Source of the DNA: Anaerolineales bacterium UBA832
GTDB lineage: Bacteria > Chloroflexota > Anaerolineae > Anaerolineales > UBA11657
Direction of reading: 5' to 3'
Assembly: GCA_002296125.1 (NCBI GenBank)
Contig: DBHI01000108.1
Location: 1 to 52,889, forward strand
Length of the DNA stretch: 52,889 nucleotides
The notes under the pieces were generated by a model. That model did no database searches and was not told the origin of the DNA. It saw only the letters and a program-made list of their open reading frames with translations. The position numbers were made by a program, and so were the translations under genes. Positions 2,374 through 36,723 of this stretch are shown here, one piece after another (the stretch's first letter is position 1; the number at the start of each line of letters is the position of its first letter).

Positions 2374-4395
2374 TTATTGATTTAAAGCTTCTTCACTAAA
2401 CACAAACTGGTTGCCATTTGTTTCTTCTATCATATACCAAGAATTTTTGGCTTGTAGTACATATGGTTTATCATTAGTATATTCGAATTCTCGAGCACAG
2501 TTATGAAATAGACTGCCATCTAGAATCTTTTCAGGATCTAGCTTTTCAAGCTCAACAAGAATTTGCATAGCAGCAGCACCGGTTTTGTCTATGCCGCCTT
2601 GATAGATATTAGTACCTTCTTCTCTGGAGGCATTAACAGCGTTGCGTAGGATTCTATTGATTGGATCAAAAGCTCCAGTGAGTTCCGCTACTACATGTTT
2701 AGCGAAATAGTCTGCTCCTCCTTCGACCAGCCAGGGAGTATTAGTTTCTTCACGACCCAAGCTTTCTTCGAGTTGCCTACAGGATTCGTCCATTAGATCT
2801 TGTTGTAACCCATGATAAAGCTCATGTATGAAAAAGTCTTGTAAATTTATTGGGTACGTGGGATTATTAGTGTCTCTCATGTCAGGTGGTAGGCCCATCA
2901 GGATTAGTCTAGATGCTGGACATATAGTAATTTGAGTTGATGCGTCAGCACCTCTGCTAAGCCAATCACGGTACATTTCTATTTCTTCATAATATCGTAC
3001 TGGGTCATCCACAATACAGGATTGATCACTAAGCCATGTTTCTATTTCATTCATGAGATAATCAATTTCATCGGGTGTAATTACTACTTTCATTGTCGCG
3101 AATGGGTGAGAGAAACCTCCTTCTTTTATAAATTCTCCGACTGGCCATAATACCATCAGGATGTCTGCTCTCCTATTAGCCATTTTAGCCTCTGAATATG
3201 AAGCCCATTCTTTCATTAAGTCAGTACTAAATTCACTGATATTTACTATTTCTATTGCACTAGGACCATAATTTGTGATTGGCGTAGGACTGTATTCTTG
3301 TTTTTGTGACTGGTATTCGTTTGAATCGACTTCTGGTAGGTTTACTGAATTGAGTATATTTTGAAGTTGTTTCAAATGCGCTTCGAAGTCACCTTCTGGT
3401 CCTGAAGTAGCTTCAAAAATTATTATGCCTGTTTGTTCATTACCAATGATTACACGCGCTTGTTGGGATTCATCTCTAAGATTACCTATACTTATATATC
3501 CTGACAGCTCATTTAATGGGTCGCGAGATTCTTCCTTGTATTCATCAGGTTCAGTGAAAAAGTCTTGTATGAAGGACTCTAGTTCTCGTATGGGTATGTC
3601 TGTAGTCGCAATCATTAGATCACCCATTGGTCCTCGGAGTTCTGTGTCGTGTTTGTGTTGGACTTTATTCCAATTGGATGGATAATTAAAAGACAAACCT
3701 GTTTTAGGGTCTGTATAAATAGTAGTATCACTGTTCTCAGGTATTGTTTTTGTCAGAATGCTTTCAGAATCTTTTTTGTTGGGATCATTGGAACCATCAA
3801 ATAATGAGGTATTTTTCAGGTTTAGAGAATCAATAATGATCTGAAAGTGTTTCAAATGTTTTTCGAAATTATCTTCTGGGCCTGTGGTTGCTTCTAAGAG
3901 TATGAGGCCAGCTTTTTCGTTTCCAACAATTACTCGCGCATGTTTAGCTCCATCACGGAGACTACCTATACTCATGTATCCTGATGGATCTTGTATAGTT
4001 CTACGAGACTCTTCTTGGTAGTTAGACTCTGAGAAATATTGATTAGCGAATTGATCTAGTTCATGAAAGTTTTCGTATAAAACTTCGAAAATTACATCGC
4101 CTACTGGTCCACGTAATTCTACATAATTTTCACGTGTCAATTCTTGCCAATTTTCAGGATACATAATTGATATTTTCGATTTGTAATCCGTATAAATCGC
4201 ATATTTGATTTCATCATTATCTGTTTTAATATCTTCAGTTTCTACAACAGTATCAATTGATTTAGTATGCTCTATTGATTTAGTTTCTTTTTCAACTGAT
4301 TCATTTGTTGTTACTGAATCTTCACTATTACATGATGACAATAGTAGACTGAAAATGAATAGACAAATTAAATAATTTTCCTTCAAATATTTCAT
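2374..4395 (-). CDS. secreted lipoprotein: two tandem ~130-aa domains plus a C-terminal MA-clan (HExxH) metallopeptidase-like domain
   Basis: The likely start is the internal ATG at 4395 (MKYLKENYLICLFIFSLLLSSC), which gives a signal peptide with lipobox LLSSC. Two homologous domains lie at 3811-4203 and 3331-3726. HELYH is encoded at 2812-2826, followed by WLVEGGADYF (Peptidase_MA_2-like pattern). Confidence 0.75.
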   Translation of the reverse strand: MKYLKENYLICLFIFSLLLSSCNSEDSVTTNESVEKETKSIEHTKSIDTVVETEDIKTDNDEIKYAIYTDYKSKISIMYPENWQELTRENYVELRGPVGDVIFEVLYENFHELDQFANQYFSESNYQEESRRTIQDPSGYMSIGSLRDGAKHARVIVGNEKAGLILLEATTGPEDNFEKHLKHFQIIIDSLNLKNTSLFDGSNDPNKKDSESILTKTIPENSDTTIYTDPKTGLSFNYPSNWNKVQHKHDTELRGPMGDLMIATTDIPIRELESFIQDFFTEPDEYKEESRDPLNELSGYISIGNLRDESQQARVIIGNEQTGIIIFEATSGPEGDFEAHLKQLQNILNSVNLPEVDSNEYQSQKQEYSPTPITNYGPSAIEIVNISEFSTDLMKEWASYSEAKMANRRADILMVLWPVGEFIKEGGFSHPFATMKVVITPDEIDYLMNEIETWLSDQSCIVDDPVRYYEEIEMYRDWLSRGADASTQITICPASRLILMGLPPDMRDTNNPTYPINLQDFFIHELYHGLQQDLMDESCRQLEESLGREETNTPWLVEGGADYFAKHVVAELTGAFDPINRILRNAVNASREEGTNIYQGGIDKTGAAAMQILVELEKLDPEKILDGSLFHNCAREFEYTNDKPYVLQAKNSWYMIEETNGNQFVFSEEALNQ

Positions 4396-4755
4396 ATTAA
4401 AATTAGTACTTGTACTTGATCTTCTTATTCTTATATTATTGTACACAAACTTAATATTCATACTTTCATAAATATTAAGAATCTTTAACATATGTTTAAT
4501 GTTGATTTATTCGTAGTTGCTGTATACTTTTTGCATGTTTACTAAACAATTATCTAATATTTTGATCTCCTTCATTATCACTGATGTTGATAAACAGTCA
4601 GTAGATAGTGATAGAGTATTGGGAATTCATGTTCCCAACTTTTCCTCGTTGGTATCCTCGTTTTTGTTGAAATTGTTAATTGTTGTTGTAGGTCTTAGTA
4701 TAGTTATGTAACTATAAACTATAAATCAAAAAAACATACTTTAGGAGGGTATGGC

Positions 4756-12186: not shown

Positions 12187-12195
12187 ATTATAACA
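12187..12195 (-). promoter_or_regulatory. candidate extended -10 (TGTTATAAT) 7 nt upstream of the ATG at 12179
   Basis: Plus-strand attataaca at 12187-12195 reads TGTTATAAT on the minus strand. The spacing would put the transcription start at or next to the start codon. Confidence 0.35.
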
Positions 12196-15800: not shown

Positions 15801-15809
15801 ATTATACCA
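15801..15809 (-). promoter_or_regulatory. candidate extended -10 (TGGTATAAT) for the MBL-hydrolase/desulfurase/mnmA operon
   Basis: Plus-strand attatacca at 15801-15809 reads TGGTATAAT on the minus strand. An AGGAG SD (plus ctcct, 15789-15793) follows, then ATG at 15779. Confidence 0.4.
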
Positions 15810-21023: not shown

Positions 21024-24000
21024 TTATTTATTGTTAATCAATTTTAGTCTATCTTTTATTGATTTTGGCAGTAAATCAAGCATCAGACGTTTTTCATGTT
21101 GATTGAATACATCAACATATAATACTATGGAAAGATACGAGAATATACCTATTATAATACTTAACAAAATGCTTATTCTTGATAACGTAATGATTACAGT
21201 AACCAATAATGTTGCTGCCATGAGTATTCGTCCAAACAATTTACTAAATGGTGTAGGACTTAGTTGTTTGTAAACTGTGGATTGAAATAATATTCCAAGT
21301 AGTAGTTCTGATAAAATTGTTGAAATAGCAGCAGCATAGAAACCATATATAGGTATGAAAATTATATTGACTACAATATTAAATATTGTGGCTATAAGGA
21401 ATGCGTTAGTCAACTTTCGTACTTGATTGATTGCAACTAATAGATAATTTGTAACGCTATTGATCCATCCGAAAGGAATTGACCAGACCATGATTTGTAG
21501 AGCTATTGCTCCTGTTGGAAGGAATTCTTCGCCTCCTAGAATGGTTATAAGAAACGGTGCTAGTGTGCTAGTTATTATGGCAATAGGAATTGCTATTACG
21601 AAAAGTAACTTGATCGCAAAATGATAGGTATTTATTAGCGACTTTTTATCTGTGTTAGCTTGTTGACTCATTAGTGGAAATATTGCAAAAGTAAAAAACG
21701 ATGGAACAATATTAAATGCTTCAATAAATTTATATGCAGTACTATAGCGACCTACTTCTGATTGTCCACGCATAGTTCTAATCATTGGAATATCTACTTT
21801 AAAGAATAAGGTAGCTAACAAATGATTTATCATAAGAGGGAAAGATTCACTAACCATTTGTTTTTGAAGATCCAGGTTAAATTCTGTTTGTGGTTTGAAA
21901 AATAGTTTTCTAATAATAACTATAAGAGCTGTTAAGGTTAATATATTTACAATGATGCTGGCACCAGCAAGCCCAACAAATCCATATCCTAATATGAGAG
22001 CGATTAATCCCAGTATGACTTTTAAGATAGTGCTAAAACTACTAATTGCAGCTGGATATTCAGCTTTTTCAAATGCGTAGAATACAGCTGTGATTCCAGT
22101 AGATATGGTTGAAAATAACATACCAATACTCAGGAGTACAATTGCTAAAATGGTATTTTGACCTAGTAGTCCTGAATTAATTTCATAAAGATAAATTACT
22201 CCTAGAAAGATTGGCATCGTTATTAATAACAAACCAATTCTCAAAATAGTACTATTTGCAAAAAATTGGTTGATATTGGCGAGATTTTTTGATGCTTCGC
22301 GTGTTAGCCAGGTGTTGAGACCAAAGTTTGCCCAAATTTCAAGCCAACCAACTAGTACTATTGCTGTTGCATAATTGCCTGCTTCAGCTGGACCTAGCAT
22401 TCTTAGGTAAAACATGGCAAATATGAAATCTACACTGCGATTGAGTAAGTTAAATCCCATAGGGGCTATGCTATTTTTTGCTATAGTATTGAGTCGAGAT
22501 AATCTTTTGTTCTTATAAGATATATGCCAAATCCATATAAAAAACAAAATTATCAGTGAAATAATAGAGATTGCTGAAATTACACTTCCTATTCTAAAAG
22601 ATAATGGGCTATATATTAATCTGATTGTATGTGATCCTTTTTCGAGAGGAATTGCTCTAAAATTACCGTGTGCTCTCAGTATTATTGATTTTGTTTCTGA
22701 TATTTGCTGAGTATTTTGGACATATGCTTGCCATCCATTATCAAAAGAATCTGTAATTACTACGTAACCGGGTTGAGACATTTCAGTGTATATTTCAAGT
22801 TTGTTAGACTTAGTAGAGGTAATTTTTGCTTTACCTATATTACAATCTGTTCGATTTGATGTGTTAGAGGAATTGCTATTGCTAATATTGTCTGCAGATT
22901 CTAGGACTAGAAAATGGTGTGGATCGTATTCTGTCAAATCAAGATCATTATTATGATTGAATACAATACAACTTTCTGGTAGTGTGTATACCCTTGGTAA
23001 GACTTTGTTGTTTTCATAGATAAACAATTCGTTTTCATATATTAGTGTGAATTTTTCCGAGTTGTCAATGTTTTGATTTGTAACAATATATTTCACATTT
23101 AACAAATCGAGTAGTGGCGAGTGCAGACCTTTCCAAGTGGTGATTGGTGATATTCTATTATATTGAAGAAGGTTTTGTGGTTCTATTAAGTTCATATAAT
23201 CAACATATTGTTTTGGTATGATAGAGTCATATCCTCGTATGTCTTTCATTCTAAAAAGCCAAGCTGAATTCGCATTAAGTATTTTGTCTCCATTTGGATC
23301 ATATGTGGTAAATCTCCAGTGACTTTTGTCTTTTTCCAAGAACTCTATGATGTCTGGTTTGTAATTTAGAATGTCCGGATTGCTGTTTGAATTAAAACCA
23401 TAACCAGCAAATATCAGATCAGTTACCAAAATTAACCATGCTATAAATTTCCATTTGGAGTGTGTAGCTGTATTAATCTTTTGTACAATCCATCCACTAA
23501 GTACTAATAGTATTGCACATTGTAGTATCCATCTGGCTTCATAGGAGAAAAACATTTGTGTTCCGGAAAATATAGTACTAGCACCAGATAATTCAGATAA
23601 GAGTGTTGATAGGATAGGATCAATTTCATTGAAAAATATGTAACTTACAAATAGACTTGCCAATAAAATAATACCGGAAAATATACTAATTTTAGATATA
23701 GTGTTAGCTGTTTTATGTAAATATCTTTGATTAAAATTTACAAAAGATTGGATGGTTGATGCTGATAGTAGAGATATACACAAACTTAATGGCCAAGACC
23801 AACGAAAAGGAGAATGTAATTGATCTAACGATGGTAAGTAGTATATTAATGCATACAGTGGAGTACCGAATATAAATCCCAAACATAAGATAGTCATTAT
23901 TAACCAAAATCCTACGTCAGACAATTGTTTTGTGGGAGATGTTTTTCTAGAAATATAGTTTATCAAAGCAATTATCGTTAGTAATATTGGTAGAATTCCT

Positions 24001-25097
24001 AGATAAATTCCTCCTTCTACATAGTTTTTTATTCCCCAATCTATAGTATTTGTATTTTCTCCATGACTGTTTTTGGTAACATTTTTCCAGTCCCAGGAGA
24101 ACATGTCCAAATATTGATGGTGTGTAGGGTTTCCGAAGAAATTGGGAACTAACATAGTTATTATTCGTCTGTAAGGATAGCCCCATTGTTGTACTTCCGA
24201 TAGGCTCGCTGATTCTTCACGAAAATTGTTGCTAGCTGCTTCAATCAGTGGAAATAGCTGTATAGCACTTAAGAGGAGTCCAAAACTAACAATTAAACAT
24301 ATAAGCAATAACATATTGATTAACATTTTGAAATCTATTATTTTCTTTAATAGTAATTTCAGTAAATGCCAGGATGAATAACTCGCTACAATGAGTAGAG
24401 AATAAGCAACAACTTCTGGATGACCAGCTAGTATTTGTAAACCAATTGCTATAGCACCTATACATATCCAAGGTATATGGGATGTCTTACCTAATATGGT
24501 GCGTTTATATATTAATCCGTCTATTGACAATAGTATTGTTGGGAGCCAGGCGGCACCTGCGACTATCATTGGAAAGACTGCACTAACTATCATGAATAAG
24601 CTTATTTGATATATTGTTGATGCAGTTAAGCAACTCCACTTGTCAAATTTCAGTGATCTACAGAATAAATACATGCTTATTCCTGCAATAATATATTGTG
24701 ATAGGATGAACCATCCATATGCTTTAGAAATTGGCAAAATATGAAACAATATACTAAATGGATATAACATGGAATGTTGTGCATTTGCTAAGAATGGGGT
24801 TCCACCAAATAAATAAGGGTTCCATAGAGGAATCTCTTTTGCATTTAATGATTCGCTAATAAAGTTTTGCCATACATAATTTTGTAAAACTAAATCGGAA
24901 AGCAAAGCATTGTGAGGGGGTTGATCAGATTGTAATATATCAATATCAGACGAAGATTTCCAGGGCTCAAATTCAATAAGGTTTTCAGTGGGTACAAGTG
25001 TGTTTTTTCCAATAGTGACATTTGCAAATATCAAAATTGGTGGCAGTATGAGTGCCAAAGGTACAAATAGTTTTTGTACAACTTTTAGTAGATTCAC
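21024..25097 (-). CDS. fusion protein: N-terminal YfhO-type GT-C glycosyltransferase-like membrane domain plus C-terminal MOP-superfamily (Wzx-like) polysaccharide flippase domain
   Basis: 1357 aa. Residues ~1-862 (22512-25097) are polytopic with LWNPYLFGGTPFLANAQHSMLYPF and a large extracytoplasmic segment before a final TM, which is YfhO-like. Residues ~866-1357 (21027-22500) have 12 or more TMs beginning NRSVDFIFAMFYLRMLGPAEAGNYA, the Wzx/polysaccharide-biosynthesis-protein pattern. Confidence 0.75.
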   Translation of the reverse strand: MNLLKVVQKLFVPLALILPPILIFANVTIGKNTLVPTENLIEFEPWKSSSDIDILQSDQPPHNALLSDLVLQNYVWQNFISESLNAKEIPLWNPYLFGGTPFLANAQHSMLYPFSILFHILPISKAYGWFILSQYIIAGISMYLFCRSLKFDKWSCLTASTIYQISLFMIVSAVFPMIVAGAAWLPTILLSIDGLIYKRTILGKTSHIPWICIGAIAIGLQILAGHPEVVAYSLLIVASYSSWHLLKLLLKKIIDFKMLINMLLLICLIVSFGLLLSAIQLFPLIEAASNNFREESASLSEVQQWGYPYRRIITMLVPNFFGNPTHHQYLDMFSWDWKNVTKNSHGENTNTIDWGIKNYVEGGIYLGILPILLTIIALINYISRKTSPTKQLSDVGFWLIMTILCLGFIFGTPLYALIYYLPSLDQLHSPFRWSWPLSLCISLLSASTIQSFVNFNQRYLHKTANTISKISIFSGIILLASLFVSYIFFNEIDPILSTLLSELSGASTIFSGTQMFFSYEARWILQCAILLVLSGWIVQKINTATHSKWKFIAWLILVTDLIFAGYGFNSNSNPDILNYKPDIIEFLEKDKSHWRFTTYDPNGDKILNANSAWLFRMKDIRGYDSIIPKQYVDYMNLIEPQNLLQYNRISPITTWKGLHSPLLDLLNVKYIVTNQNIDNSEKFTLIYENELFIYENNKVLPRVYTLPESCIVFNHNNDLDLTEYDPHHFLVLESADNISNSNSSNTSNRTDCNIGKAKITSTKSNKLEIYTEMSQPGYVVITDSFDNGWQAYVQNTQQISETKSIILRAHGNFRAIPLEKGSHTIRLIYSPLSFRIGSVISAISIISLIILFFIWIWHISYKNKRLSRLNTIAKNSIAPMGFNLLNRSVDFIFAMFYLRMLGPAEAGNYATAIVLVGWLEIWANFGLNTWLTREASKNLANINQFFANSTILRIGLLLITMPIFLGVIYLYEINSGLLGQNTILAIVLLSIGMLFSTISTGITAVFYAFEKAEYPAAISSFSTILKVILGLIALILGYGFVGLAGASIIVNILTLTALIVIIRKLFFKPQTEFNLDLQKQMVSESFPLMINHLLATLFFKVDIPMIRTMRGQSEVGRYSTAYKFIEAFNIVPSFFTFAIFPLMSQQANTDKKSLINTYHFAIKLLFVIAIPIAIITSTLAPFLITILGGEEFLPTGAIALQIMVWSIPFGWINSVTNYLLVAINQVRKLTNAFLIATIFNIVVNIIFIPIYGFYAAAISTILSELLLGILFQSTVYKQLSPTPFSKLFGRILMAATLLVTVIITLSRISILLSIIIGIFSYLSIVLYVDVFNQHEKRLMLDLLPKSIKDRLKLINNK

Positions 25098-26625: not shown

Positions 26626-29403
26626 TTATTGTGGTATTTTGATGCTACTGATTTTGATATGATTTTCACCTTCTGATAGTAATAATCTTTCTCCTGTATC
26701 TGGAATATACAATCCTATTTCAAGATCATATTTTCCGCTTTCAAGTGTTAGTGTATGTGTGTCAATCACATATTCATCCGATATCCATAAGCTAGTTGGA
26801 TAAGTATTTTGTATTGGTTGACTGTCATTTTGAGTTATCAAGGTTCCATCTTCATTATAAGCATGTATGAAAATTTTATAATTGCTATTTGTTTCTCTAA
26901 TGCATTTCCAGTGTAGTTCTATATCGATTTGTGGTGTTTCGTCATAATTTATGTTATATCCTACCATTTGTAACATATTTCCAAAAGTAAAATTTGTTTT
27001 CTGCTCTGCAAAAGGGGTTGTCCATATTCGGTTGGTTGATACTATGTTTATAGTACTAATTGTAGTATGGGAATTTTTGTTGTTGTCAGTGGTGGAGTTA
27101 ATCTTTAAGTTGTACTCACCAGATTTCATGTTTTTAGGGATCTTTATTGATCTATGGTCTATTATATTTTCGTTTACTGACCATAAACTTGTACTATAAG
27201 TTCCTTGTACAGGTTCAGTAGAGTCAATATTATGGTTATTTATACTTACATTAATTATTTTGTTGTGATCGATTTTATTTTTTGCTCTCCAATAGAGTGA
27301 TAGGGGTATAGATTCACCTGCTATAAATGATGTTTTAGGTAAATCAAATCCGAACAAATATAAATTGCCAAAATTGTGAGAAATGATTTGGGATGGTACT
27401 GGTACTATGTTATTCTTAGAAGTTCCTTGTATGAAAATTGGTCCTATCTGTGCAGTATTTGTAACATTTCCATTTTTATCAGTAGCACCAATTGTTTTAT
27501 TTGTGTCAGGACTATAAATATTTGTAGATAATACATAGTTTCCTGGTGGCATGCCGTTTGGAAGATCGAATGTTAAGCGCACTATGATAATATCGTTTGT
27601 TGTCCATTGTGAAGATTTATAACTATCATTAAATGCTTGATTCCAATAGTGTTCAGATTTATCAACTAAATCTGCTACAAACCTTAGATTTTCTTCTGAA
27701 TTGTCTAGAATTCTTATTTTTAAATCAATGTTTATTTCATCTGATGATGATTCAGCGAATCTAAAACCAATGATTTCAGCTATTTGTCCAAATCTTGAAT
27801 AAAAGTTTTGAAAGTTAAGTTGAGTTATTTCTGTTGATGTATCAAATTCGAAAATGTTTATCTTGTCATTAGGATCATTTGACTTAATATCCCATTGGTT
27901 TATCCATTCTCTCGGTGGCTCTGCTGATTGCGGAAATATATATAATGTTGACCCTTTGTCAGGTATTGCTAATGTGTTTCCGTCTCTTAGCCACTTGATT
28001 TTTTCATAATCTTTAGCTAGATAAGCTACAGTTGGGTGTTGATAATGAAGTGAACTGACATAAATGTTGTCAAAGTTTTCGGATTTTTTGTTAAGAGTGT
28101 TTGCTACTTGTACCATATCTCCATGATTTGACATAAATTGTGTGCTTTGTTGAGCCCATATAAAATAATAATCTTTTGTAGTGATGGTAAATGTATAAAT
28201 GCCTAAAAGTGTAACTGCCAAAATATTTGTCCATTTTGCAGGATATTTGTATCTTAGTTTAGATGTTAATATATTTGTTAGACTTAAATAACCCATGGCA
28301 GGAAATACCAACAAGAATGGAAACAAACCAAATGCTCTTACATTTGATGGAAATACTTCATTGATTGCTAGAGCTGTTGGCAGTAGAAAGACAGGTAACC
28401 AAATAACAAGTAATAATTCAGCTGATTTGTGTAAGGATATCTTGTCATTATAGTATTGTTTTGCGTTGATGATATTCCGTATTGTTAATGTTAATCCTAT
28501 GACAAACATTGAACCATTTAAAGGGTCTAACAGTGGTTTGTAGGGTATGTTGAAACGATCATATGGTTCACCTGATATAAACAACATTTTCAAAGAACCA
28601 GTTAGACCTTCTAAAAGTAAATGGTATTTTCCATATGTTGGACCAACTTGTTGTATACGGATTAACAAGTCTTGAGGGAATTGAACAAAGTGATATATTA
28701 GTGGTGTTATCATTATGCTAAATCCAGCAATCAAGTAGACAATGTTTTTTAGGTTTAGTATTCTATTGACAGAATGTTTGTTTTGTTTGTATGATTTAAT
28801 ATAAGTTGTTAGAAAGGGTATAGAACCAATAATTAGTACTATTGGCATTGCTCGAGAGGCTAAATATGTATGAAAAGTGAGTCCAGCAAAAATTCCAGCA
28901 AAGCAAAATAGTTTTGGTTGTCCCAATCGCAGTGCTTTAAATAGCATTCCGATAAAAAGTGCTTGTATAGCAGGTTGAGTAATTGCTCTGAGACCAAACC
29001 GAGACCAGACAAGGTGACTAAACGAGAAAGCTAATAACATGGAAGTGGTGATTGCGATTAGTTTGACGTTTGTTTTATGATGTAAAATTTGTTTTGTTGC
29101 AAAAAATGTTATTGGTACTGTAATTATTCCCCAAAATGTTGCGGTAATTTTTAAGGAGAAAATTGATGATCCTATGAGCTGATAAATTAATGCTGCCGAA
29201 TAGAAAAACAATACTTCTTTACCAGTGTATGATCGAATAAATGAGGGTCTGTAATTTTCAAATGCTATTTCTTCTATCAATATTGCATTAGCTGCAATAT
29301 CATAGTGAAGTCCAGGAGGTACTGTATTTATTGCAAAGATGCGTAATACAGCAGCTGCTAATGTAATGAGTGTAAGAAATTGAATAGATCTTTTGTAATC
29401 CAT
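26626..29403 (-). CDS. GT-C glycosyltransferase (ArnT/PMT family 39/83-like) with a large C-terminal extracytoplasmic region of three tandem repeats
   Basis: The N-terminal ~410 aa is polytopic with a first-loop PPGLHYDIAANA and ArnT/PMT_2-like organisation. The C-terminal half holds three ~115-aa repeats (about 27424-27795, 27034-27372 and 26629-26985) sharing FGN..-GF/GY...W......Y.TSLW....I.D......P....G.Y.L. Confidence 0.75.
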   Translation of the reverse strand: MDYKRSIQFLTLITLAAAVLRIFAINTVPPGLHYDIAANAILIEEIAFENYRPSFIRSYTGKEVLFFYSAALIYQLIGSSIFSLKITATFWGIITVPITFFATKQILHHKTNVKLIAITTSMLLAFSFSHLVWSRFGLRAITQPAIQALFIGMLFKALRLGQPKLFCFAGIFAGLTFHTYLASRAMPIVLIIGSIPFLTTYIKSYKQNKHSVNRILNLKNIVYLIAGFSIMITPLIYHFVQFPQDLLIRIQQVGPTYGKYHLLLEGLTGSLKMLFISGEPYDRFNIPYKPLLDPLNGSMFVIGLTLTIRNIINAKQYYNDKISLHKSAELLLVIWLPVFLLPTALAINEVFPSNVRAFGLFPFLLVFPAMGYLSLTNILTSKLRYKYPAKWTNILAVTLLGIYTFTITTKDYYFIWAQQSTQFMSNHGDMVQVANTLNKKSENFDNIYVSSLHYQHPTVAYLAKDYEKIKWLRDGNTLAIPDKGSTLYIFPQSAEPPREWINQWDIKSNDPNDKINIFEFDTSTEITQLNFQNFYSRFGQIAEIIGFRFAESSSDEINIDLKIRILDNSEENLRFVADLVDKSEHYWNQAFNDSYKSSQWTTNDIIIVRLTFDLPNGMPPGNYVLSTNIYSPDTNKTIGATDKNGNVTNTAQIGPIFIQGTSKNNIVPVPSQIISHNFGNLYLFGFDLPKTSFIAGESIPLSLYWRAKNKIDHNKIINVSINNHNIDSTEPVQGTYSTSLWSVNENIIDHRSIKIPKNMKSGEYNLKINSTTDNNKNSHTTISTINIVSTNRIWTTPFAEQKTNFTFGNMLQMVGYNINYDETPQIDIELHWKCIRETNSNYKIFIHAYNEDGTLITQNDSQPIQNTYPTSLWISDEYVIDTHTLTLESGKYDLEIGLYIPDTGERLLLSEGENHIKISSIKIPQ

Positions 29404-29512: not shown

Positions 29513-31300
29513 ATGAAAAGCGAATTTAAAATAAAAGGAAAACTGAAAACCAACAAAAATTCTGCTATTAAATGGTTAATTTCTCATGCTCAGTATCACT
29601 CTTGGGCACTTATTGGTATGATTGTGCCTGCGTTTGCCAATGCTGCTTTAGCTGCTTTGGTCCCATTATTAATTGGTAATGCATTTGAAATGTTAGTTCA
29701 GAGTATGCCGAAACCAGACTATAAATATTTGTTGTGGGCTGCAACTATGATAGTTGTTTCTCAGGTTGGTCGTGCTATTGGAATTTTGATTCGCAATATT
29801 TCTGCTGAGTTGATTGGGCAGCGCATGGAACGAAATACTCGTGATGAGTTGTATGTTAGTTTGATTGGAAAAAATATGTCTTTTCATGATACTTATACAG
29901 TTGGTGATGTAATGGCGCGTGCCACTAATGATGTGAGAGAAATTAATTTGATGTTTAATCCTGGACTTAATTTAGTGATTGGTTCCGGTAGTTTTCTTAT
30001 TATGCCTATAATTTTTTCTTGGCAGATTAACCCTGTTTTGATCTTATCACCATTAGTATTTTTGTTTCTTTATGTGATTGCATTGTGGCAATATTTGGGT
30101 GAATTACGACCTGTATCTGAGGTTGCTAGAAGATCATTTGGAGAATTAAATGATCTTCTAGCACAAGTTATTGATGGGATTGAGACAGTTAAGGGTGCTG
30201 CGAGGGAAACATATGAAACAAACAGGTTTTTATCAAAAGCAAGAGAATATCGTGATGCATTTGTAAAGCAAGGATGGATTGAAGCTAGATTTCTCCCATT
30301 GTTGCTTATGGGTTTGGTAAATGCCTTTGGTTTTTGGCATGCAGTCAGTTTGTTTGAGTCAGGTTTAGTGAATGTGGGTGATGTGATTGCTTATATGGGT
30401 TTATTATCTTTATTTGGTTTTCCAGTTTTCGTTTCATTATTTTCTTATTCTCAAGTAGCATTGGGTATTGCTGGAGCGCGTCGTATGCTTGAATTAATTC
30501 GTGGCGAGAATATTCTTGATGAAAATATCGATGGATATACAAATAATATGCTTGGTCAAGTTAGATTTGAGAATGTTTCGTTTGGATATACTAATGGTTC
30601 TCAAGTAGTGGAGAATTTATCGTTTGATGTAAAACCTGGACAGATTGTTGCTTTAGTTGGGCAAACTGGTTCTGGAAAATCTACGATTTTGAAATTAATC
30701 AACAGAACTTATGATGTGACATCTGGGAAAATATTGGTAGATAACATTGATGTTTGTGATTGGAGTTTAGCATCATTAAGAAAGCAAATTTCCATTATTG
30801 AACAGGATTTGTTTTTGTTTTCTAGGTCTATAGCTGAAAATATATCGTTTGGCATTCCAGAATCTGATCAATTGCTTATTGAAAAAGCTGCTAGAGCAGC
30901 TCAGGCACACGATTTTATCATGGAATTTAAGGATGGTTATAATACTATTATTGGTGAACGGGGAGCAACATTATCGGGTGGTCAACGTCAGCGTCTTGCT
31001 TTGGCCCGAGCATTTCTTACTGATCCCAGAATATTGATATTAGATGATTCTACTAGTGCTATTGATAGTGAAACTGAAGATCAGATACAGAGAGCGATTC
31101 GCGCGGCATCTCAGGGTCGTACTACTTTTATTATTACACATCGTCTGTCTCAGATACGTTGGGCTGACATGATTTTAGTATTAAAAAATGGTGAAATAGT
31201 GGATAGTGGCAATCACGAGAAGTTAATAAATTCTTCGGATATTTACAAAAGAATTTTTTCTAATCATTTAGATAAAAATGAGAAGGGTGACAAGGTTTAA
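29513..31300 (+). CDS. ABC exporter, fused permease/ATPase subunit (degenerate-site partner, Walker B DD)
   Basis: Six-TM exporter domain, then Walker A GQTGSGKST, signature LSGGQRQR, and Walker B ILILDDS (Asp in place of the catalytic Glu). Confidence 0.9.
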   Translation: MKSEFKIKGKLKTNKNSAIKWLISHAQYHSWALIGMIVPAFANAALAALVPLLIGNAFEMLVQSMPKPDYKYLLWAATMIVVSQVGRAIGILIRNISAELIGQRMERNTRDELYVSLIGKNMSFHDTYTVGDVMARATNDVREINLMFNPGLNLVIGSGSFLIMPIIFSWQINPVLILSPLVFLFLYVIALWQYLGELRPVSEVARRSFGELNDLLAQVIDGIETVKGAARETYETNRFLSKAREYRDAFVKQGWIEARFLPLLLMGLVNAFGFWHAVSLFESGLVNVGDVIAYMGLLSLFGFPVFVSLFSYSQVALGIAGARRMLELIRGENILDENIDGYTNNMLGQVRFENVSFGYTNGSQVVENLSFDVKPGQIVALVGQTGSGKSTILKLINRTYDVTSGKILVDNIDVCDWSLASLRKQISIIEQDLFLFSRSIAENISFGIPESDQLLIEKAARAAQAHDFIMEFKDGYNTIIGERGATLSGGQRQRLALARAFLTDPRILILDDSTSAIDSETEDQIQRAIRAASQGRTTFIITHRLSQIRWADMILVLKNGEIVDSGNHEKLINSSDIYKRIFSNHLDKNEKGDKV

Positions 31301-33107
31301 TGATATGACTTCAGTTTTTGGTGGACTCTCTACTGATAAATATGATAGGTATTATACTGACAAAGTTTTGGTACAACGAATTTGGCATTATGTGAGGCCA
31401 TTTAGATCTCAATTATTTATTGTTTTCACTTGTCTGTTGTTGGTGGCTGCTTTATATGCATCTTTTCCTGTATTAGTTTCTGAGGGTGTAGATGAGATTG
31501 CATTAAGTGGTGATCAGAAAGTGCTAGTTCGTTTAATGGTGTTCATTGCTGTTGCTGGTGTATCTATATGGTTGTTGAGTTATGTTCGTTTTGGGATGTT
31601 TAACAAGCTGATTGGGGATGTTGTTTTGGAAATGCGTAACGATGCATTTAAGGCATCTGTATTTCATGATTTAGGTTTTTATGATGAGCATATATCTGGC
31701 AAAATTATAAGTAGGGTTACTTCTGATACACACGAATTTGGTCAGACAATGCGTCTAATTGGTGATATTTTAAATCAAATGGCAGTTGTTGTTGTTTTAA
31801 TTGTTGTCCTTTTTAGGATAGAGTGGCGTTTGGCTTGCTTGCAGCTAGTATTGTCTCCCGTTCTGTTTTTATTAGTGAAAGGATGGAGAAAGATTGCGAG
31901 ACGTGTAACACGACAGGGAGCTAGAGCGATGGCTAATGTTAATTCTGCTATTCAAGAAGCAATAACTGGAATTACTATTGCAAAGAATTTTCGTCAAGAA
32001 GGTTATATTTATGGAGAGTTTGATGAAGTTAATCAAGAATCTTATAGAATTAATTTTCGTAGAGGATTAGTTCTATCTACTGTATTTCCAGTTTTGCATG
32101 GACTTGTAGGAGTTGGTGTAGCAATAATGTTATATGCTGGAGGAAGAGTGGCTGGTATAGGCTTGATTTCTGCGGGAGCTTGGTACTTGTTTGTTTCAAC
32201 TGTGGATAGGTTTTGGTTTCCAATCATGCAATTGGCAGCATTCTGGAGTCAGTTCCAAGCAGGATTAGCAGCTGCGGAACGTGTTTTTGCATTAATAGAT
32301 ACAGAATCAGCGGTACATCAAAAGGGAAATGACTATGACGAATTATTGTCAGCTGAAATAGTTTTTCAAAATGTTCGTTTTGCATATGAAGAAAATCAAG
32401 ATGTACTTGATGACTTTAATTTACGTATAGATACAGGACAAAGTGTAGCTCTTGTTGGACATACAGGAGCTGGTAAGTCTTCACTTCTTAAGTTGTTGTC
32501 TAGGTTTTATGAATTTCAGGATGGTTCTATATTAGTTGATGGAAGAGATATTCGTTCATTAAACCTCCAGGCATATAGGCGACAAATAGGCATCGTTTCT
32601 CAGTCTCCATTCTTGTTTTCAGGTACTTTAGCCGACAATATTCGTTATGCATCTCCAGATTCTAATGACAATGATATATTATATGTTGCTCATACTATTG
32701 GTTCTGGAGAGTGGCTTAGTGATTTACCACATGGTATTTATACTGATGTAGGTGAAAGAGGATCAAAACTTTCATTAGGACAACGCCAGTTAGTAGCTCT
32801 AAGTAGAGTCTTGCTACAAGATCCATTGTTGTTTTTGTTGGATGAAGCTACTGCTAGTATTGATCCATTTACTGAGTCTCAAATCCAGGAAGCCCTTGAT
32901 CTAATAATGGATAATCGTACTAGCATATTGATAGCTCATAGGCTGTCTACAGTTCAATCTTCGGATTTGATAATTGTAATGAACAAAGGAAGAATAATAG
33001 AAAGTGGTAGCCATAATGATTTGATGGTTTTATCAGGTCATTATTCTGATTTATATAATACTTACTTTAGACACCAGTCCTTTGAATATATTGAAGACTT
33101 AAACTAG
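31278..33107 (+). CDS. ABC exporter, fused permease/ATPase subunit (consensus Walker B, degenerate signature)
   Basis: Walker A GHTGAGKSS, signature LSLGQRQ (non-canonical), Walker B LFLLDEATASID. The start is ATG 31278, which overlaps the upstream gene, or ATG 31305. Confidence 0.9.
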   Translation: MRRVTRFNDMTSVFGGLSTDKYDRYYTDKVLVQRIWHYVRPFRSQLFIVFTCLLLVAALYASFPVLVSEGVDEIALSGDQKVLVRLMVFIAVAGVSIWLLSYVRFGMFNKLIGDVVLEMRNDAFKASVFHDLGFYDEHISGKIISRVTSDTHEFGQTMRLIGDILNQMAVVVVLIVVLFRIEWRLACLQLVLSPVLFLLVKGWRKIARRVTRQGARAMANVNSAIQEAITGITIAKNFRQEGYIYGEFDEVNQESYRINFRRGLVLSTVFPVLHGLVGVGVAIMLYAGGRVAGIGLISAGAWYLFVSTVDRFWFPIMQLAAFWSQFQAGLAAAERVFALIDTESAVHQKGNDYDELLSAEIVFQNVRFAYEENQDVLDDFNLRIDTGQSVALVGHTGAGKSSLLKLLSRFYEFQDGSILVDGRDIRSLNLQAYRRQIGIVSQSPFLFSGTLADNIRYASPDSNDNDILYVAHTIGSGEWLSDLPHGIYTDVGERGSKLSLGQRQLVALSRVLLQDPLLFLLDEATASIDPFTESQIQEALDLIMDNRTSILIAHRLSTVQSSDLIIVMNKGRIIESGSHNDLMVLSGHYSDLYNTYFRHQSFEYIEDLN

Positions 33108-33138: not shown

Positions 33139-34830
33139 TTAACCAAATAAGTCTGTTTTAGCTTGTTCTGCTTTATGTTTTGCTGTCTGGCTACTTGATG
33201 TTTGTTGGTTAATTTCCGCATATAGCTTTGGTCCATATTCACGTGTGCGAATGACAACTGGCATTGGAACTGCATGACCCATTATAAGTGCTTGCTGTTG
33301 CGTATCTAGTCTAGCTAAGACTTCTCGCAGCGCTCCAGCACCACTGACACCTGAAAATACTGCTCGGATATCGGATTCGTTGTCTAGTAGACAAGTTACT
33401 CGTGTTCCAATTTGGCTCATTACTTCGTCATCAATGCCACTAGGTCTTTGATCTACTACAAGAAGGGTAACATTATATTTTCTTAATTCTCGTGCAATTA
33501 TGCCAAAAATAGTATGTTGGGACAATTCAGGGGTTAAGAATTTGTGAGCTTCTTCAATAACTATCATGAGTGGATTTGGATCTTCACCTCTCTTCCCAAA
33601 AGCTTTGTTTTTTGCAGAGACATATCTTTCATGGATTCTTCTTGTCAAATAATTTGCTACAAACATATATGCGGCCAGACTATTGTCATATGTGCCAAAT
33701 TCTAAGACAATGCTTGTACCAGAGTTTAATTTTTGAAACAGAATTTCAATGAAATCATCACTTACATGTTCTTTTAGGAATTTCATGTTGCGAAAGAGTT
33801 CAAATTTTCTTTGTATTGCTCCTAGTGAGCTTTTGATAAGATCACCTTGTTCTATGAATTCATCAAGCTCATTTTGATCCTGTTCTTGATCTGACAGCAA
33901 CTTTTTAAACCAATTTTTTCCTAAGCGTCTTCGTAAGAAATATAGAGCATTTACTTGTACATCACTGAGTGCTAGTACACCTGCTAACATTGCGATATCT
34001 TCAGGTTCTATTGCATCATATGAAATGTATAACTCTCCGTCAGCTCTGTCACCTCTTGCTAGTGAAGTTTTCTTATCAAGTGTAATTACATTGATATGAT
34101 TGGAATCAAATAATTGTTGTAGTCCTTTGTATGTTTGTCCATGTTCGTTTTGAATACCCCAACCATAATCATTGTGCATATCAAAGATTAAGCAAGACGC
34201 TTTTCTGCTTTTTACTATTCCAGATAGTAATGTTCTGGTTATAAAAGATTTTCCAGTGCCACTTTTACCGAATACTCCAGAGGATCTTTCAATAAATCTG
34301 TCCAAATTTACATTGATTGGTACTTGATCCATTTCTAAAGGGTTGCCTAGGTAAAAATGATTTTCATCAGCTTTTCCAAAGATTTGTGTTACATCTTCTT
34401 CATTTGCTTGGCTGACTATTGAGAAGTGTGTAGGTATTGTTTTAACAGGTTTAGGTTTTTTATCATTTTTTTCCAATACAAGCATTGGGGCAATATTAAC
34501 TATACCGTATGATAAAGTGCTTCTGTATATTTCTATAGAATATTTATCATTAGTGTCTGGTGGATTAGTTTCTATATAAGGATTGTTATGGGCAAGTGCA
34601 ACATCAGTTACTATACAAAAGAATCGTGTATTGGTTAATCCTTGTACCACTACGTATCGTCCAACAGCTATTTGTTCTATCATACTACCAGGCACTTCAC
34701 CAGAGTCCAGTTTGACAGTAAGTCCCTTAGATAAAGACCCATCAATGATGGTACCAATACGCGTGTTTAATAGCGTTTCATCAGTATTTGATTCATCAGA
34801 AAACTTTTCTAAATCAGATGTTTTGTTCAT
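33139..34830 (-). CDS. HerA-like hexameric ATPase (HAS-barrel plus DUF87/FtsK-like P-loop)
   Basis: N-terminal barrel-like segment IGTIIDGSLSKGLTVKL...GRYVVV. Walker A GVFGKSGTGKSF, Walker B PLMIVIEEAHKF, and the HerA-typical LLVVDQRPSGID. Confidence 0.8.
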   Translation of the reverse strand: MNKTSDLEKFSDESNTDETLLNTRIGTIIDGSLSKGLTVKLDSGEVPGSMIEQIAVGRYVVVQGLTNTRFFCIVTDVALAHNNPYIETNPPDTNDKYSIEIYRSTLSYGIVNIAPMLVLEKNDKKPKPVKTIPTHFSIVSQANEEDVTQIFGKADENHFYLGNPLEMDQVPINVNLDRFIERSSGVFGKSGTGKSFITRTLLSGIVKSRKASCLIFDMHNDYGWGIQNEHGQTYKGLQQLFDSNHINVITLDKKTSLARGDRADGELYISYDAIEPEDIAMLAGVLALSDVQVNALYFLRRRLGKNWFKKLLSDQEQDQNELDEFIEQGDLIKSSLGAIQRKFELFRNMKFLKEHVSDDFIEILFQKLNSGTSIVLEFGTYDNSLAAYMFVANYLTRRIHERYVSAKNKAFGKRGEDPNPLMIVIEEAHKFLTPELSQHTIFGIIARELRKYNVTLLVVDQRPSGIDDEVMSQIGTRVTCLLDNESDIRAVFSGVSGAGALREVLARLDTQQQALIMGHAVPMPVVIRTREYGPKLYAEINQQTSSSQTAKHKAEQAKTDLFG

Positions 34831-35449
34831 AGTTTACCTTTAAGCGACGCAAAATTGAGTCAAGTTTGTATGGGTCATGAGATAATAAGCGTGCTAGTTT
34901 TTTACCACATTCAAACAAAAATAATCCTTGCTCTTCAATAGACCTTGCTTCTGCAGCTCTTCTCAATGTTGTAATAATAAGCTCGTCGATTGAAGGCTCG
35001 TTAGAGTTTAGTATTAGAGTGAGGTAATCTGTACTTTTTGTAAATTGAACAATATCATTTTTAGCACAAGTATTTATATAGTCCAGTGTTACAGGTGGTT
35101 GAGGAGGTAGACTATAAATAATAGTGTCATTATAAACATATCCAATAGATAGAACACTGACTTCAATTGGAACTTGCCTATTATTTCGTTGATCTTGTAT
35201 ATATGTTTCTGGAAGTTGAGGTACAGTTATAAGTTGTTTGACAAGTAGATCGTCTTCAATGAATATGTTATATATAACTCCTATTATGTCAATTTTTCCT
35301 TGTTGGGCTGGGGCTTTAACAAAATCACCAAACAGAGGTACATCGGGTTCAGGTAAATTGCATCCAAATGTGAATCCAGTGGTGTCACTCCTTAGCATTC
35401 TTCCAATAGGTATTGAAGATGAATTGTTGTTCATATTTTTGTCACTCAT
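34814..35449 (-). CDS. hypothetical protein (211 aa) between the NurA-like and HerA-like genes
   Basis: The start overlaps the upstream stop (ATGA at 35446-35449), and the 3' end overlaps the HerA start by 17 nt. The N-terminus IGRMLRSDTTGFTFGC...GDFVKAP...IIGVIYNI looks like a small beta-barrel and the C-terminus is helical. No family recognised. Confidence 0.6.
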   Translation of the reverse strand: MSDKNMNNNSSSIPIGRMLRSDTTGFTFGCNLPEPDVPLFGDFVKAPAQQGKIDIIGVIYNIFIEDDLLVKQLITVPQLPETYIQDQRNNRQVPIEVSVLSIGYVYNDTIIYSLPPQPPVTLDYINTCAKNDIVQFTKSTDYLTLILNSNEPSIDELIITTLRRAAEARSIEEQGLFLFECGKKLARLLSHDPYKLDSILRRLKVNYEQNI

Positions 35450-36633
35450 CTTCTATGTCTCCTTTTTGCACTGTTAGTTAATGTTTTACCAAAGGCCTTT
35501 TTAGATATTTCAGTATATATTTGATTTTTGTGCATGCTATTACTGATCATTTGGTCAAGGTATTGTTTTTCTTCCCATGTTACTACTGCTAGTTCATGTG
35601 ATCTCATTAGTACATATGGATATCCGTTTCCAAAACTTGATTGTTCAACAATACTAGAATGTATAATCGACAGTTTGTCAGGTTGTTGTGTTACCCATTC
35701 AGGCACTTCTACTCTGAGAATAACAGGTTCATTGATTGTACCAGTATTTACATAAAAGAACATTATTTTTTGTCCAGCTGGCATGTAACTCTTCAAGTTT
35801 TGTGGTGAAGCATTAACAAATATAGCACTTCTTTCACCAGGTCTAAGGAAATTAAAAAGCATACGATCTGTGAGTTGGTTGTATGGATATAAACTACGTA
35901 TTTCGTCCTCATTAAATGAAGTGTCTTTTATATCATGAAGTTTAAGAAGTCGTAATACATTAGCAGCTCTTGGTCTGCTTATTACACCTGCAATGCAGGC
36001 GCCTGTAGATTCGATCTTGATCAATGTGTCTAAATATTCTTGCAACATTTCAGCAGATTGAGAATTTTCTCGAGTTTGTAGACCCAGATATAGTAGCAGA
36101 CCATTATCTAGCATTAACACAGTAGGATTGTTTTGATCTTCTCTAGTTGCAAGTTTAGATAATTCTTGTAATTCTATAATGTCTCGTTTAGCATTTATTA
36201 TGGCATTCGAGATCAGAGATCCATTAGGATATATATCATGGTCTTGATAGAATAAATGTGGTTGAGAACTACAATAAGGTGCTTCATTTGATCCATGACT
36301 AAACACTATACTTCCAGTGTTAATCAAAAAATACATTGCTTTCCCATGTCTATCGGGATAAATTTGTGATCCATCTGTCGCAATAATATTGGCTATTTGT
36401 GGCTGTGCTGGGCATTCAAATGAGGAGTTAATAGGTTCTTTTGTAGGTATTGCTCCGGTCCAATTTAATGATATTGCTTTTGTAATTTTCTGTTGTAAAA
36501 GATCATCATTGACAAATTGTTCTAATGTATTTTTCGCTGTTTTATGTTTATCTTGTATTTCTATATGTTTAGATGCCAATGTGGTGCTCATTGCTTTTAC
36601 ATCTGATGTTACTTTGTTTAATTCAAGTCCCAT
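35446..36633 (-). CDS. NurA-domain nuclease-like protein
   Basis: Motif series seen by eye: IIATDGSQIY, AKRDIIELQEL, VLMLDNGLL, GVISRPRA, ILRVEVPEWV, GYPYVLMRSHELAVV. This matches the NurA (RNase H-like fold) D-E-D-H pattern. Confidence 0.65.
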   Translation of the reverse strand: MGLELNKVTSDVKAMSTTLASKHIEIQDKHKTAKNTLEQFVNDDLLQQKITKAISLNWTGAIPTKEPINSSFECPAQPQIANIIATDGSQIYPDRHGKAMYFLINTGSIVFSHGSNEAPYCSSQPHLFYQDHDIYPNGSLISNAIINAKRDIIELQELSKLATREDQNNPTVLMLDNGLLLYLGLQTRENSQSAEMLQEYLDTLIKIESTGACIAGVISRPRAANVLRLLKLHDIKDTSFNEDEIRSLYPYNQLTDRMLFNFLRPGERSAIFVNASPQNLKSYMPAGQKIMFFYVNTGTINEPVILRVEVPEWVTQQPDKLSIIHSSIVEQSSFGNGYPYVLMRSHELAVVTWEEKQYLDQMISNSMHKNQIYTEISKKAFGKTLTNSAKRRHRR

Positions 36634-36714
36634 GTGATTGTTTTTTATTATTTGGTTTGAATAAAAGTTAAGGTGTTATAAATAAATTAGTTTTAGTTTT
36701 TCTTGATTGAAGAG

Positions 36715-36723
36715 ATTATAGCA
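36715..36723 (-). promoter_or_regulatory. candidate extended -10 (TGCTATAAT) upstream of the NurA-like gene
   Basis: Plus-strand attatagca at 36715-36723 reads TGCTATAAT on the minus strand. It overlaps an 8-bp inverted repeat, tatagcat (36717-36724) / atgctata (36735-42), in the 132-nt gap after livF. Confidence 0.35.

Follow-up and report, generated by a model that had tools for sequence, protein, structure and literature searches.

A HAS-like barrel protein encoded between nurA and herA in Anaerolineae, a proposed accessory subunit of HerA-NurA

Introduction

The 52,889-nucleotide (nt) contig DBHI01000108.1 of Anaerolineales bacterium UBA832 (assembly GCA_002296125.1), the whole of which is called the window here, carries a cassette of three overlapping minus-strand genes: nurA, for a NurA-family nuclease; a gene for a 211-amino-acid (aa) protein, here the middle protein; and herA, for a HerA-family ATPase. 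The locus raises the question of what a third protein does between two enzymes that are known as a pair. HerA-NurA is a proposed end-resection machine of archaea and some bacteria, and the HAS barrel (Pfam PF09378), named for the barrels of HerA and ATP synthase, is the N-terminal domain of HerA. The HerA hexamer threads double-stranded DNA (dsDNA), and its ring of HAS domains offers helices and loops to which the NurA dimer binds (PMC9960219; PMC12977600). In a 2026 study of Thermococcus, the two-component T. kodakarensis complex degraded both strands; a role in resection was questioned, and the study raised the matter of the actual role of the complex or of a regulator still missing (PMC12977600).

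The cassette is very probably a chromosomal HerA-NurA operon with a co-functional third gene. A predicted structure of the middle protein, taken with analogy to known HerA-NurA complexes, tips the balance slightly toward a physical accessory subunit at the face of the HerA barrels where NurA docks.

The nuclease and the ATPase

An earlier note on this DNA had delimited the three open reading frames (ORFs), and their coordinates, sizes and strand recur exactly in the ORF list (Table 1); the identities that it gave to the two outer proteins hold as well. The first protein matches Pfam NurA (PF09376; E 9.7e-22, 78 bits against a cut-off of 21) over profile positions 2-254 of 254. The residues of the motif series that had been read in it are invariant in a 30-sequence family alignment: D87/G88, R150/D151/E154, D176, R307/E309/P311/W313 and P339/Y340/R344/E347 are each found in 30/30 sequences, and D87, E154, D176, E309 and E347 are the conserved acidic active-site residues. 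Because a PDB sequence search with the window NurA gave no match, the protein is classed, by sequence, as a divergent subfamily. On one metagenomic contig (L070:1011-3883), matches to the NurA hidden Markov model (HMM) cover 2.9 kb upstream of the middle gene, which points to two NurA copies in tandem or to a nurA interrupted by an insertion.

The third protein matches the DUF87/HerA central domain (PF01935; E 1.2e-31, 111 bits against a cut-off of 23), and its Walker A motif (G188..K194), Walker B motif (E426-E427-A428-H429) and D460-Q-R-P-S464 are each present in 30/30 aligned sequences. Its N-terminus, MNKTSDLEKF, agrees with the family consensus MxxxSELDxFF, which supports the choice of start codon. 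The window HerA does not itself reach the Pfam threshold for the HAS barrel; many homologs at 58-62 % identity to it carry both PF09378 and PF01935, and a Dehalococcoidia ortholog scores 28.9 bits for PF09378 against a cut-off of 25.2. The N-domain of HerA is acidic, with a median isoelectric point (pI) of 4.8. PDB sequence matches of the window HerA are the HerA chains 8wiv, 4d2i and 9x1l, and Deinococcus HerA was not recovered at E ≤ 0.001. Since the NurA has no PDB match and the HerA does not find its Deinococcus counterpart at that threshold, the two proteins form a subfamily separate from the Deinococcus pair. By analogy, they would assemble 6:2 (HerA:NurA) and digest DNA ends in an ATP-dependent manner.

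The middle protein and its family

The middle protein has no match in Pfam, PADLOC, NCBIfam or PDB sequences, nor does a sequence-profile search of the PDB with its family alignment give any. The view that it belongs to no recognised family thus stands for curated families, but the protein is no orphan: it belongs to a sizeable unannotated family. A word-indexed search returned 321 close homologs (52-70 % identity), all labelled hypothetical, of which the named ones come from Chloroflexota/Anaerolineae metagenome-assembled genomes (MAGs). With the family profile, a search that was exhaustive over 1.84 billion cluster representatives (clusters at 50 % identity) yielded 714 clusters at E ≤ 0.001, against 414 at the stricter threshold of E ≤ 1e-10. 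Database names across the family are all 'hypothetical protein', and its named members are so far found only in Chloroflexota and Melainabacteria-type MAGs, a breadth read from MAG labels of which some are inconsistent (one 'Leptolyngbya' MAG protein is also labelled Melainabacteria). The cluster of the window protein comes from marine, Tara-derived Chloroflexota MAGs; the source organism is of a low-GC marine Chloroflexota MAG lineage that turns up in Tara Oceans data and is therefore probably a mesophile.

In the family alignment 46 columns are invariant and mean column identity is 63 %; the motifs include IGRLLRS, PEPxVPxFGxFVKAPAQ, DQRxNRQVPIEVSVL, LPPQPPxTLD and a C-terminal LLRRIRP. Mean identity of orthologs to the window protein is 0.55, between the 0.49 of NurA and the 0.65 of HerA. 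The protein contains no catalytic motifs and is acidic (pI 4.9 for the whole, 4.3 for the barrel described below); this acidity, shared with the HerA N-domain, argues against a role in DNA binding.

Two subtypes can be told apart. Subtype A (DQRxNRQVP...LPPQPPxTLD) is that of the window, and subtype B (SPQLxKLLR[ST]EF...LPPxPxxIHxFV) occurs in Dehalococcoidia-like and Melainabacteria-type sequences; both stand directly upstream of HerA in the loci compared (L128, L130, L132, L053, L058 and the window; L numbers denote loci in other genomes or contigs). The subtype motif (DQRxNRQ or LLR(T/S)E) was considered as a tracker of NurA adjacency and rejected, both subtypes occurring with and without NurA; these calls were made by eye, since sorting by regular expression is leaky. 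The idea that the middle protein is naturally fused to NurA or HerA in some genomes was likewise discarded: the longer hits P0238, P0255, P0236 and P0184 look like frameshifted or mis-called ORFs. Two of the four, P0238 and P0255, contain C-terminal motifs of NurA and support adjacency of the two genes.

A predicted HAS-type barrel that stands alone

Statements on structure refer throughout to predicted models from shallow alignments. In the AlphaFold2 model of the middle protein, a confident one (predicted local distance difference test score, pLDDT, 83.5; predicted template modelling score 0.78), a beta-barrel interrupted by two helices spans about residues 15-127, and the C-terminal remainder (residues 128-211) is helical. 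When this model is compared with the PDB by Foldseek, the matches listed, those of lowest E-value, are HerA chains in 50/50 cases (E 1e-5 to 4e-4, probability 1.00, 123-201 aligned columns); they include Sulfolobus HerA (4D2I), the Thermococcus and Deinococcus HerA-NurA complexes, SIR2-HerA, DUF4297-HerA and TdpA.

Sequence evidence complements the fold matches. P0323, a family member of the melainabacterial branch, scores 29.8 bits for PF09378 against a gathering score of 25.2 (residues 35-106), and 21/32 close Anaerolineae homologs have sub-threshold matches to that domain (best E 0.0037). The distant members of the family are of Dehalococcoidia and Melainabacteria/Obscuribacterales type, many of them with a precomputed Pfam HAS-barrel match, and hhalign joins the melainabacterial branch to the window family end to end (99.8 %, E 1.3e-28, 192 columns). 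Together, model and profiles identify the N-terminal half of the middle protein as a predicted HAS-type barrel, which bears out the earlier reading of an extra HAS-like barrel with a helical tail.

An origin by recent duplication of the neighbouring HerA barrel was rejected, the hhalign comparison with the cognate HerA N-terminus giving a probability of 1 %; likeness to the barrel of the cognate HerA is at the level of the fold only. Modelled alone, the C-terminal 84 residues give a confident five-helix bundle (pLDDT 90.7), for which Foldseek found only generic helical bundles in the PDB (best E 1.2), and a relation to the helix-bundle domain of HerA could not be recognised in that comparison.

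PF09378 is fused to the ATPase in every HerA examined and in the middle-protein family it stands alone. The family is of the same fold class, with P0323 above the Pfam threshold, and differs from PF09378 by a helical insertion, by LPPQPP as an invariant segment and by a helical bundle without structural relatives.

Conservation of the three genes

Through the middle protein, 43 GTDB species-representative genomes were found, every one from Anaerolineae (Anaerolineales or Thermoflexales). In nearly all of these loci that have room for it, NurA is the next gene upstream, and HerA lies downstream of the middle gene, directly or after an insert of 0.1-2 kb. As a sample found through the middle protein is biased, a second sample was anchored on HerA: 80 metagenomic loci with a HerA at 45-77 % identity, whose six-frame ORFs were scanned with three HMMs. 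Where at least 800 bp of upstream sequence was present, the middle gene was found upstream on the same strand in 52/62 loci (84 %), at a median distance of 80 nt from herA. The 41 loci with at least 3 kb upstream comprise 29 with NurA, middle gene and HerA, 5 with middle gene and HerA, and 7 with neither partner; NurA without the middle gene was seen next to this HerA subfamily in 0/41. The triad is kept at 45-80 % identity across the bacterial class and, as the earlier note had thought worth examining, is conserved as a unit in relatives. HerA loci that lack both partners are scattered among triad-bearing loci in the HerA tree, and this fits an ancestral triad with repeated uncoupling.

Linkage also extends beyond the close relatives: the middle gene stays next to HerA even where divergence has brought identity down to 39-45 %. 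L055 is a triad with a 4-nt overlap, and L053 (Dehalococcoidia) and L058 are pairs of middle gene and HerA without an adjacent NurA, the two genes of L058 overlapping by 4 nt. These data bear on the proposal that the middle protein is unrelated to HerA-NurA, being the partner of another ring ATPase or a general small-barrel protein that is merely co-transcribed in Chloroflexota. Some HerA loci do lack the middle gene, and in Melainabacteria-type genomes the homolog sits between unrelated genes on one side and, on the other, a cluster for ATP-binding cassette (ABC) permeases and a lipoprotein, with no HerA or NurA within 6-7 kb. Adjacency in 84 % of the HerA-anchored loci, linkage and start/stop overlaps that persist down to 39-45 % identity, and structural relatives that among the matches listed are HerA chains only make this proposal very unlikely.

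In the Melainabacteria-type loci L049, L051 and L057, the homolog stands in a conserved block, after oppB/oppC-like permeases and a lipoprotein (Pfam PF27226, 'AF_1845') and ahead of variable genes, fmt and rsmB; in L051 a gene with a DprA winged-helix domain follows directly. The 'AF_1845' protein, with its signal peptide and lipobox, goes with the adjacent ABC permeases and was therefore rejected as a partner of the melainabacterial homologs.

In several Anaerolineae relatives the junction between middle gene and herA holds inserts (Table 1): PD-(D/E)XK 'GxxExxY' proteins (PDDEXK_3 in L001), pairs of a nucleotidyltransferase and a HEPN/DUF86-like protein, or a 262-aa nucleotidyltransferase-like ORF. 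The junction seems to be a recurrent insertion spot for small, selfish-looking genes of mobile type.

Proposed role of the middle protein

In the proposed mechanism, the ATP-driven hexameric ring of HerA would thread dsDNA, and the NurA dimer, docked on the HAS-barrel ring, would digest the emerging strands. The middle protein would be a third, non-catalytic subunit that binds the HerA barrel face where NurA docks, either (a) as an extra collar between HerA and NurA or (b) as a HAS-barrel look-alike that holds NurA; either geometry would let it govern how the nuclease assembles on the motor or is coupled to it. In line with other HerA-NurA pairs, the cellular role would then be to process or destroy DNA ends, whether for recombinational repair or to clear linear DNA.

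An accessory subunit is the simplest reading because an acidic, predicted HAS-type barrel is encoded between the two enzyme genes and is apparently coupled to both. The existence of middle-HerA pairs without an adjacent NurA favours the collar; the charge, like that of the HerA barrel, and the fact that NurA is never found beside this HerA subfamily without the middle gene favour the holding of NurA. Either geometry, taken individually, is less probable than an accessory subunit as such. A three-tier machine, in which a ring or set of free-standing HAS-type barrels lies between HerA and NurA or gates the access of NurA to the motor, is a tentative and rather doubtful picture.

A related proposal makes the middle protein a decoy or safety catch, a mimic of the HAS surface that holds the NurA dimer inactive or soluble until handover to HerA, and not a permanent collar. 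The acidic barrel (pI 4.3) resembles the HerA N-domain, and in D. radiodurans the interface is negative on the HerA side and positive on the NurA side (PMC9960219); the ATGA overlap of nurA with the middle gene, here and in relatives, and the 0/41 loci with NurA but no middle gene point the same way. Set against these, the middle gene lies directly upstream of HerA without an adjacent NurA in L053, L058 and 5/41 HerA-anchored loci, even with a 4-nt overlap, and the two subtypes of the protein do not track NurA adjacency, which leaves the decoy unlikely.

Several points weigh against an accessory subunit at the docking face. Both the barrel of the middle protein (pI 4.3) and the HerA N-domain (4.8) are acidic, which agrees with binding to NurA no less well than with stacking on HerA. 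The Foldseek template modelling scores are modest (0.33-0.44, normalised by the query), since only part of the query aligns, and the aligned HerA residues are not reported. The window protein itself has no PF09378 match even at E ≤ 10, so that the Pfam threshold is not reached, and hhalign finds no sequence homology of the middle-protein profile to the cognate HerA N-terminus (1 %). About 17 % of loci of the HerA subfamily have neither partner within 5 kb, and the homologs of Melainabacteria-type genomes have neither HerA nor NurA within 6-7 kb. The role of HerA-NurA itself, resection or wholesale degradation of dsDNA, is currently disputed (PMC12977600).

Comparison with known HerA systems

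The closest known system is the two-gene NurA-HerA of Deinococcus radiodurans (PDB 7F6D; PMC9960219), with which the cassette shares a nurA-herA operon in a bacterium without adjacent Mre11/Rad50. Its HerA consists of a HAS barrel and a RecA-like ATPase, and its RNase-H-like NurA docks on the HAS ring in a 6:2 arrangement (PMC9960219); chain 7f6d_A is among the Foldseek matches listed for the middle protein. To this two-component system the window adds a conserved 211-aa HAS-like barrel protein between the genes. The archaeal Mre11-Rad50-HerA-NurA clusters (Sulfolobus, Pyrococcus, Thermococcus; 4D2I, 9X1L/9X1M) have the same enzyme families and the same logic of motor plus nuclease, NurA contacting helices and loops of the HAS domain (PMC12977600). 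They differ in that the 52.9-kb window contains no Mre11/Rad50 genes, as had been claimed, and in that its extra subunit is a different kind of protein. The absence of mre11-rad50 is compatible with a bacterial form, since that of D. radiodurans is also described without this linkage (PMC12977600). What the cassette does have of a NurA-HerA system is a NurA domain with conserved acidic residues, the HerA motifs and a shared operon; linkage to mre11-rad50, a mark of the archaeal form, is absent from the window.

A precedent for an interposed third gene is nurA-csm6-herA of Pyrobaculum, next to clustered regularly interspaced short palindromic repeat (CRISPR) arrays (cited in PMC12977600; PMC3396285). 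The interposed gene there encodes Csm6 (CARF/HEPN) and is CRISPR-linked, whereas here it encodes a HAS-like barrel protein on the core chromosome with no CRISPR nearby.

In the anti-phage systems of HerA with an effector (SIR2-HerA/Nezha, 8SUB and 8J4U; DUF4297-HerA, 8ZIQ and 9C1M; TdpAB, 8WET), a partner enzyme sits on the barrel face of HerA. For the middle protein, the lowest Foldseek E-values belong to HerA chains of these systems, which are also sequence matches of the window HerA. The partner enzyme here is NurA, in contrast to SIR2, DUF4297 or TdpB; no PADLOC system is matched; and the window cassette is conserved and apparently vertically inherited, not borne by an island.

The literature searched contained no NurA/HAS-barrel-protein/HerA triad and no stand-alone HAS-barrel partner, a passing mention in Iyer et al. 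(2004) being possible. The NurA-HerA pair is already known, and the conserved, unnamed third gene between the two appears, probably, to be undescribed.

Chromosomal setting and the rival roles that it bears on

The window holds genes for an aminoacyl-tRNA synthetase, RtcB, MnmA, an IscS-like enzyme, methionine biosynthesis and polysaccharide synthesis, a cyclophilin, two ABC exporters, the liv transporter and IF-3, and rpsB-tsf-pyrH-frr-uppS; no integrase, transposase or defence gene was found in its 52.9 kb. GC content is flat through the region (0.32-0.37). In other genera, orthologous triads are still flanked by the liv operon on one side and differ on the other, and more distant triads have other housekeeping genes around them. 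The whole window is core chromosome and lacks mobile and defence genes, which favours a vertically inherited cellular system over a defence island.

An anti-phage module in a variable island, hinted at in the earlier note, is not borne out by a cassette that is conserved across Anaerolineae and lies in the core chromosome. Such a module would be of the HerA-plus-effector type (SIR2-HerA, DUF4297-HerA), with NurA as effector and the middle protein as sensor or adaptor. A PADLOC search, one of the checks proposed there, matched only HerA, in part and generically (best 3.2e-38), and left NurA and the middle protein unmatched. NCBIfam HerA_antiphage is marginally the best-scoring HerA model, yet its 96 bits are far under the cut-off and on a par with the 93 bits of the repair-type model, both cut-offs being 800. 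For archaeal HerA-NurA an antiviral role has been put forward (PMC12977600), and some relatives carry small toxin-antitoxin-like and PD-(D/E)XK genes at the junction of middle gene and herA. Against this stand the 45-80 % identity of the triad across the class, a HerA tree that indicates repeated uncoupling and not patchy acquisition, the core flanks (ribosomal proteins, aminoacyl-tRNA synthetase, IF-3, liv) with no integrase, transposase or defence gene, and uniform GC. Viral structures (BFVD) likewise yielded no analogue of the whole middle-protein model at E ≤ 0.001 by Foldseek, the lowest value being 0.017. Neither a recognised effector or match to a defence model nor a patchy distribution in islands was found, and an anti-phage function is accordingly given little credence.

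Partitioning of plasmids or chromosomes, or DNA transfer, as proposed for HerA-NurA of integrated elements, Thermus TdtA and archaeal Ced, is highly improbable. An older comparative-genomics view of HerA-NurA as plasmid-partition machinery, as it is quoted in PMC2588523, speaks for it, as does a weak NCBIfam CedD match (63 bits). That score is a tenth of the cut-off of 600, no membrane, conjugation, replication or integration genes lie near the cassette, and the setting is chromosomal core.

Gene junctions and expression signals

The earlier reading of a coupled three-gene unit fits the junctions. The sequence has an ATGA stop/start overlap of 4 nt between nurA and the middle gene (35449-35446) and a 17-nt overlap between the middle gene and herA, both as first described, and a Shine-Dalgarno-like element precedes each downstream start (Table 1). 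Database gene calls in relatives give 4-nt overlaps at both matching junctions in L003, at NurA/middle in L055 and at middle/HerA in L058. From these overlaps, translational coupling across both junctions is inferred.

The element that had been noted in the 132-nt gap between livF and nurA, TGCTATAAT, is indeed present there; enrichment of such elements is not, TGNTATAAT occurring 4 times in the window against 7.8 expected. Three of the four copies of TGNTATAAT lie within ~100 nt upstream of minus-strand gene starts (12187-12195, 15801-15809 and 36715-36723), which makes a promoter at TGCTATAAT ahead of nurA plausible and suggests that extended -10 promoters may be in use in the source organism. 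A generic scan for sigma-70 promoters gave nothing above chance, and a terminator scan found no terminator 3' of herA. The two ABC exporter genes, which overlap by 23 nt and probably encode a heterodimer pair, converge on herA, with 31 nt between the stop codons and no terminator-like hairpin.

Table 1. Features of the cassette, inserts at the middle/herA junction of relatives, and other ORFs of the window
Feature	Position	Strand	Description
nurA	35446-36633	-	NurA-family nuclease, 395 aa
middle gene	34814-35449	-	211 aa; predicted stand-alone HAS-like beta-barrel plus five-helix C-terminal bundle; proposed accessory subunit
herA	33139-34830	-	563 aa; HerA-family ATPase (hexameric DNA translocase); carries an N-terminal barrel of its own
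AAGGAG	35459-35464	-	Shine-Dalgarno-like; within nurA 3' end, 9 nt ahead of middle-gene ATG
AAGGT	34836-34840	-	Shine-Dalgarno-like; within middle-gene 3' end, 5 nt ahead of herA ATG
TGCTATAAT	36715-36723	-	candidate extended -10 promoter element in livF-nurA gap
middle/herA insert	L001:8629-9009		
middle/herA insert	L017:6670-7041		
middle/herA insert	L024:6612-7058		
middle/herA insert	L032:7598-8496		
middle/herA insert	L036:6618-7513		
middle/herA insert	L033:6607-7395		
middle/herA insert	L043:6605-7399		
ABC exporter gene	29513-31300	+	ABC_membrane + ABC_tran
ABC exporter gene	31278-33107	+	ABC_membrane + ABC_tran
ORF	53-1387	+	444 aa; no Pfam match
ORF	2374-4491	-	705 aa
flippase-fusion gene	21024-25097	-	1357 aa
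ORF	26626-29403	-	925 aa; no Pfam match at E ≤ 1e-5

Other genes of the window

Elsewhere in the window, a short and weak stretch of PsbP type is all that the 705-aa ORF shows, an unusual feature in a Chloroflexota region that looks non-photosynthetic. The 1357-aa protein joins a YfhO-like C-terminal segment to a flippase domain of Polysacc_synt/MatE/MurJ type, an unusually long fusion, and its gene is followed, with a 4-nt overlap, by a GT2 glycosyltransferase gene. The 925-aa ORF lies between the cyclophilin gene and the ABC exporters.

Implications

The middle protein, being conserved and like the surface on which NurA docks, is a testable candidate regulator of HerA-NurA, at least in Chloroflexota. 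If barrels of this kind do form a third tier, they could decide between recombinogenic 3' tails and destruction of both strands, and the unlinked members in Melainabacteria would then represent a portable 'barrel adaptor' for ring ATPases. An accessory role would give a name and a context to several hundred clusters of "hypothetical protein" and would show the HAS barrel to be capable of standing as a module by itself.

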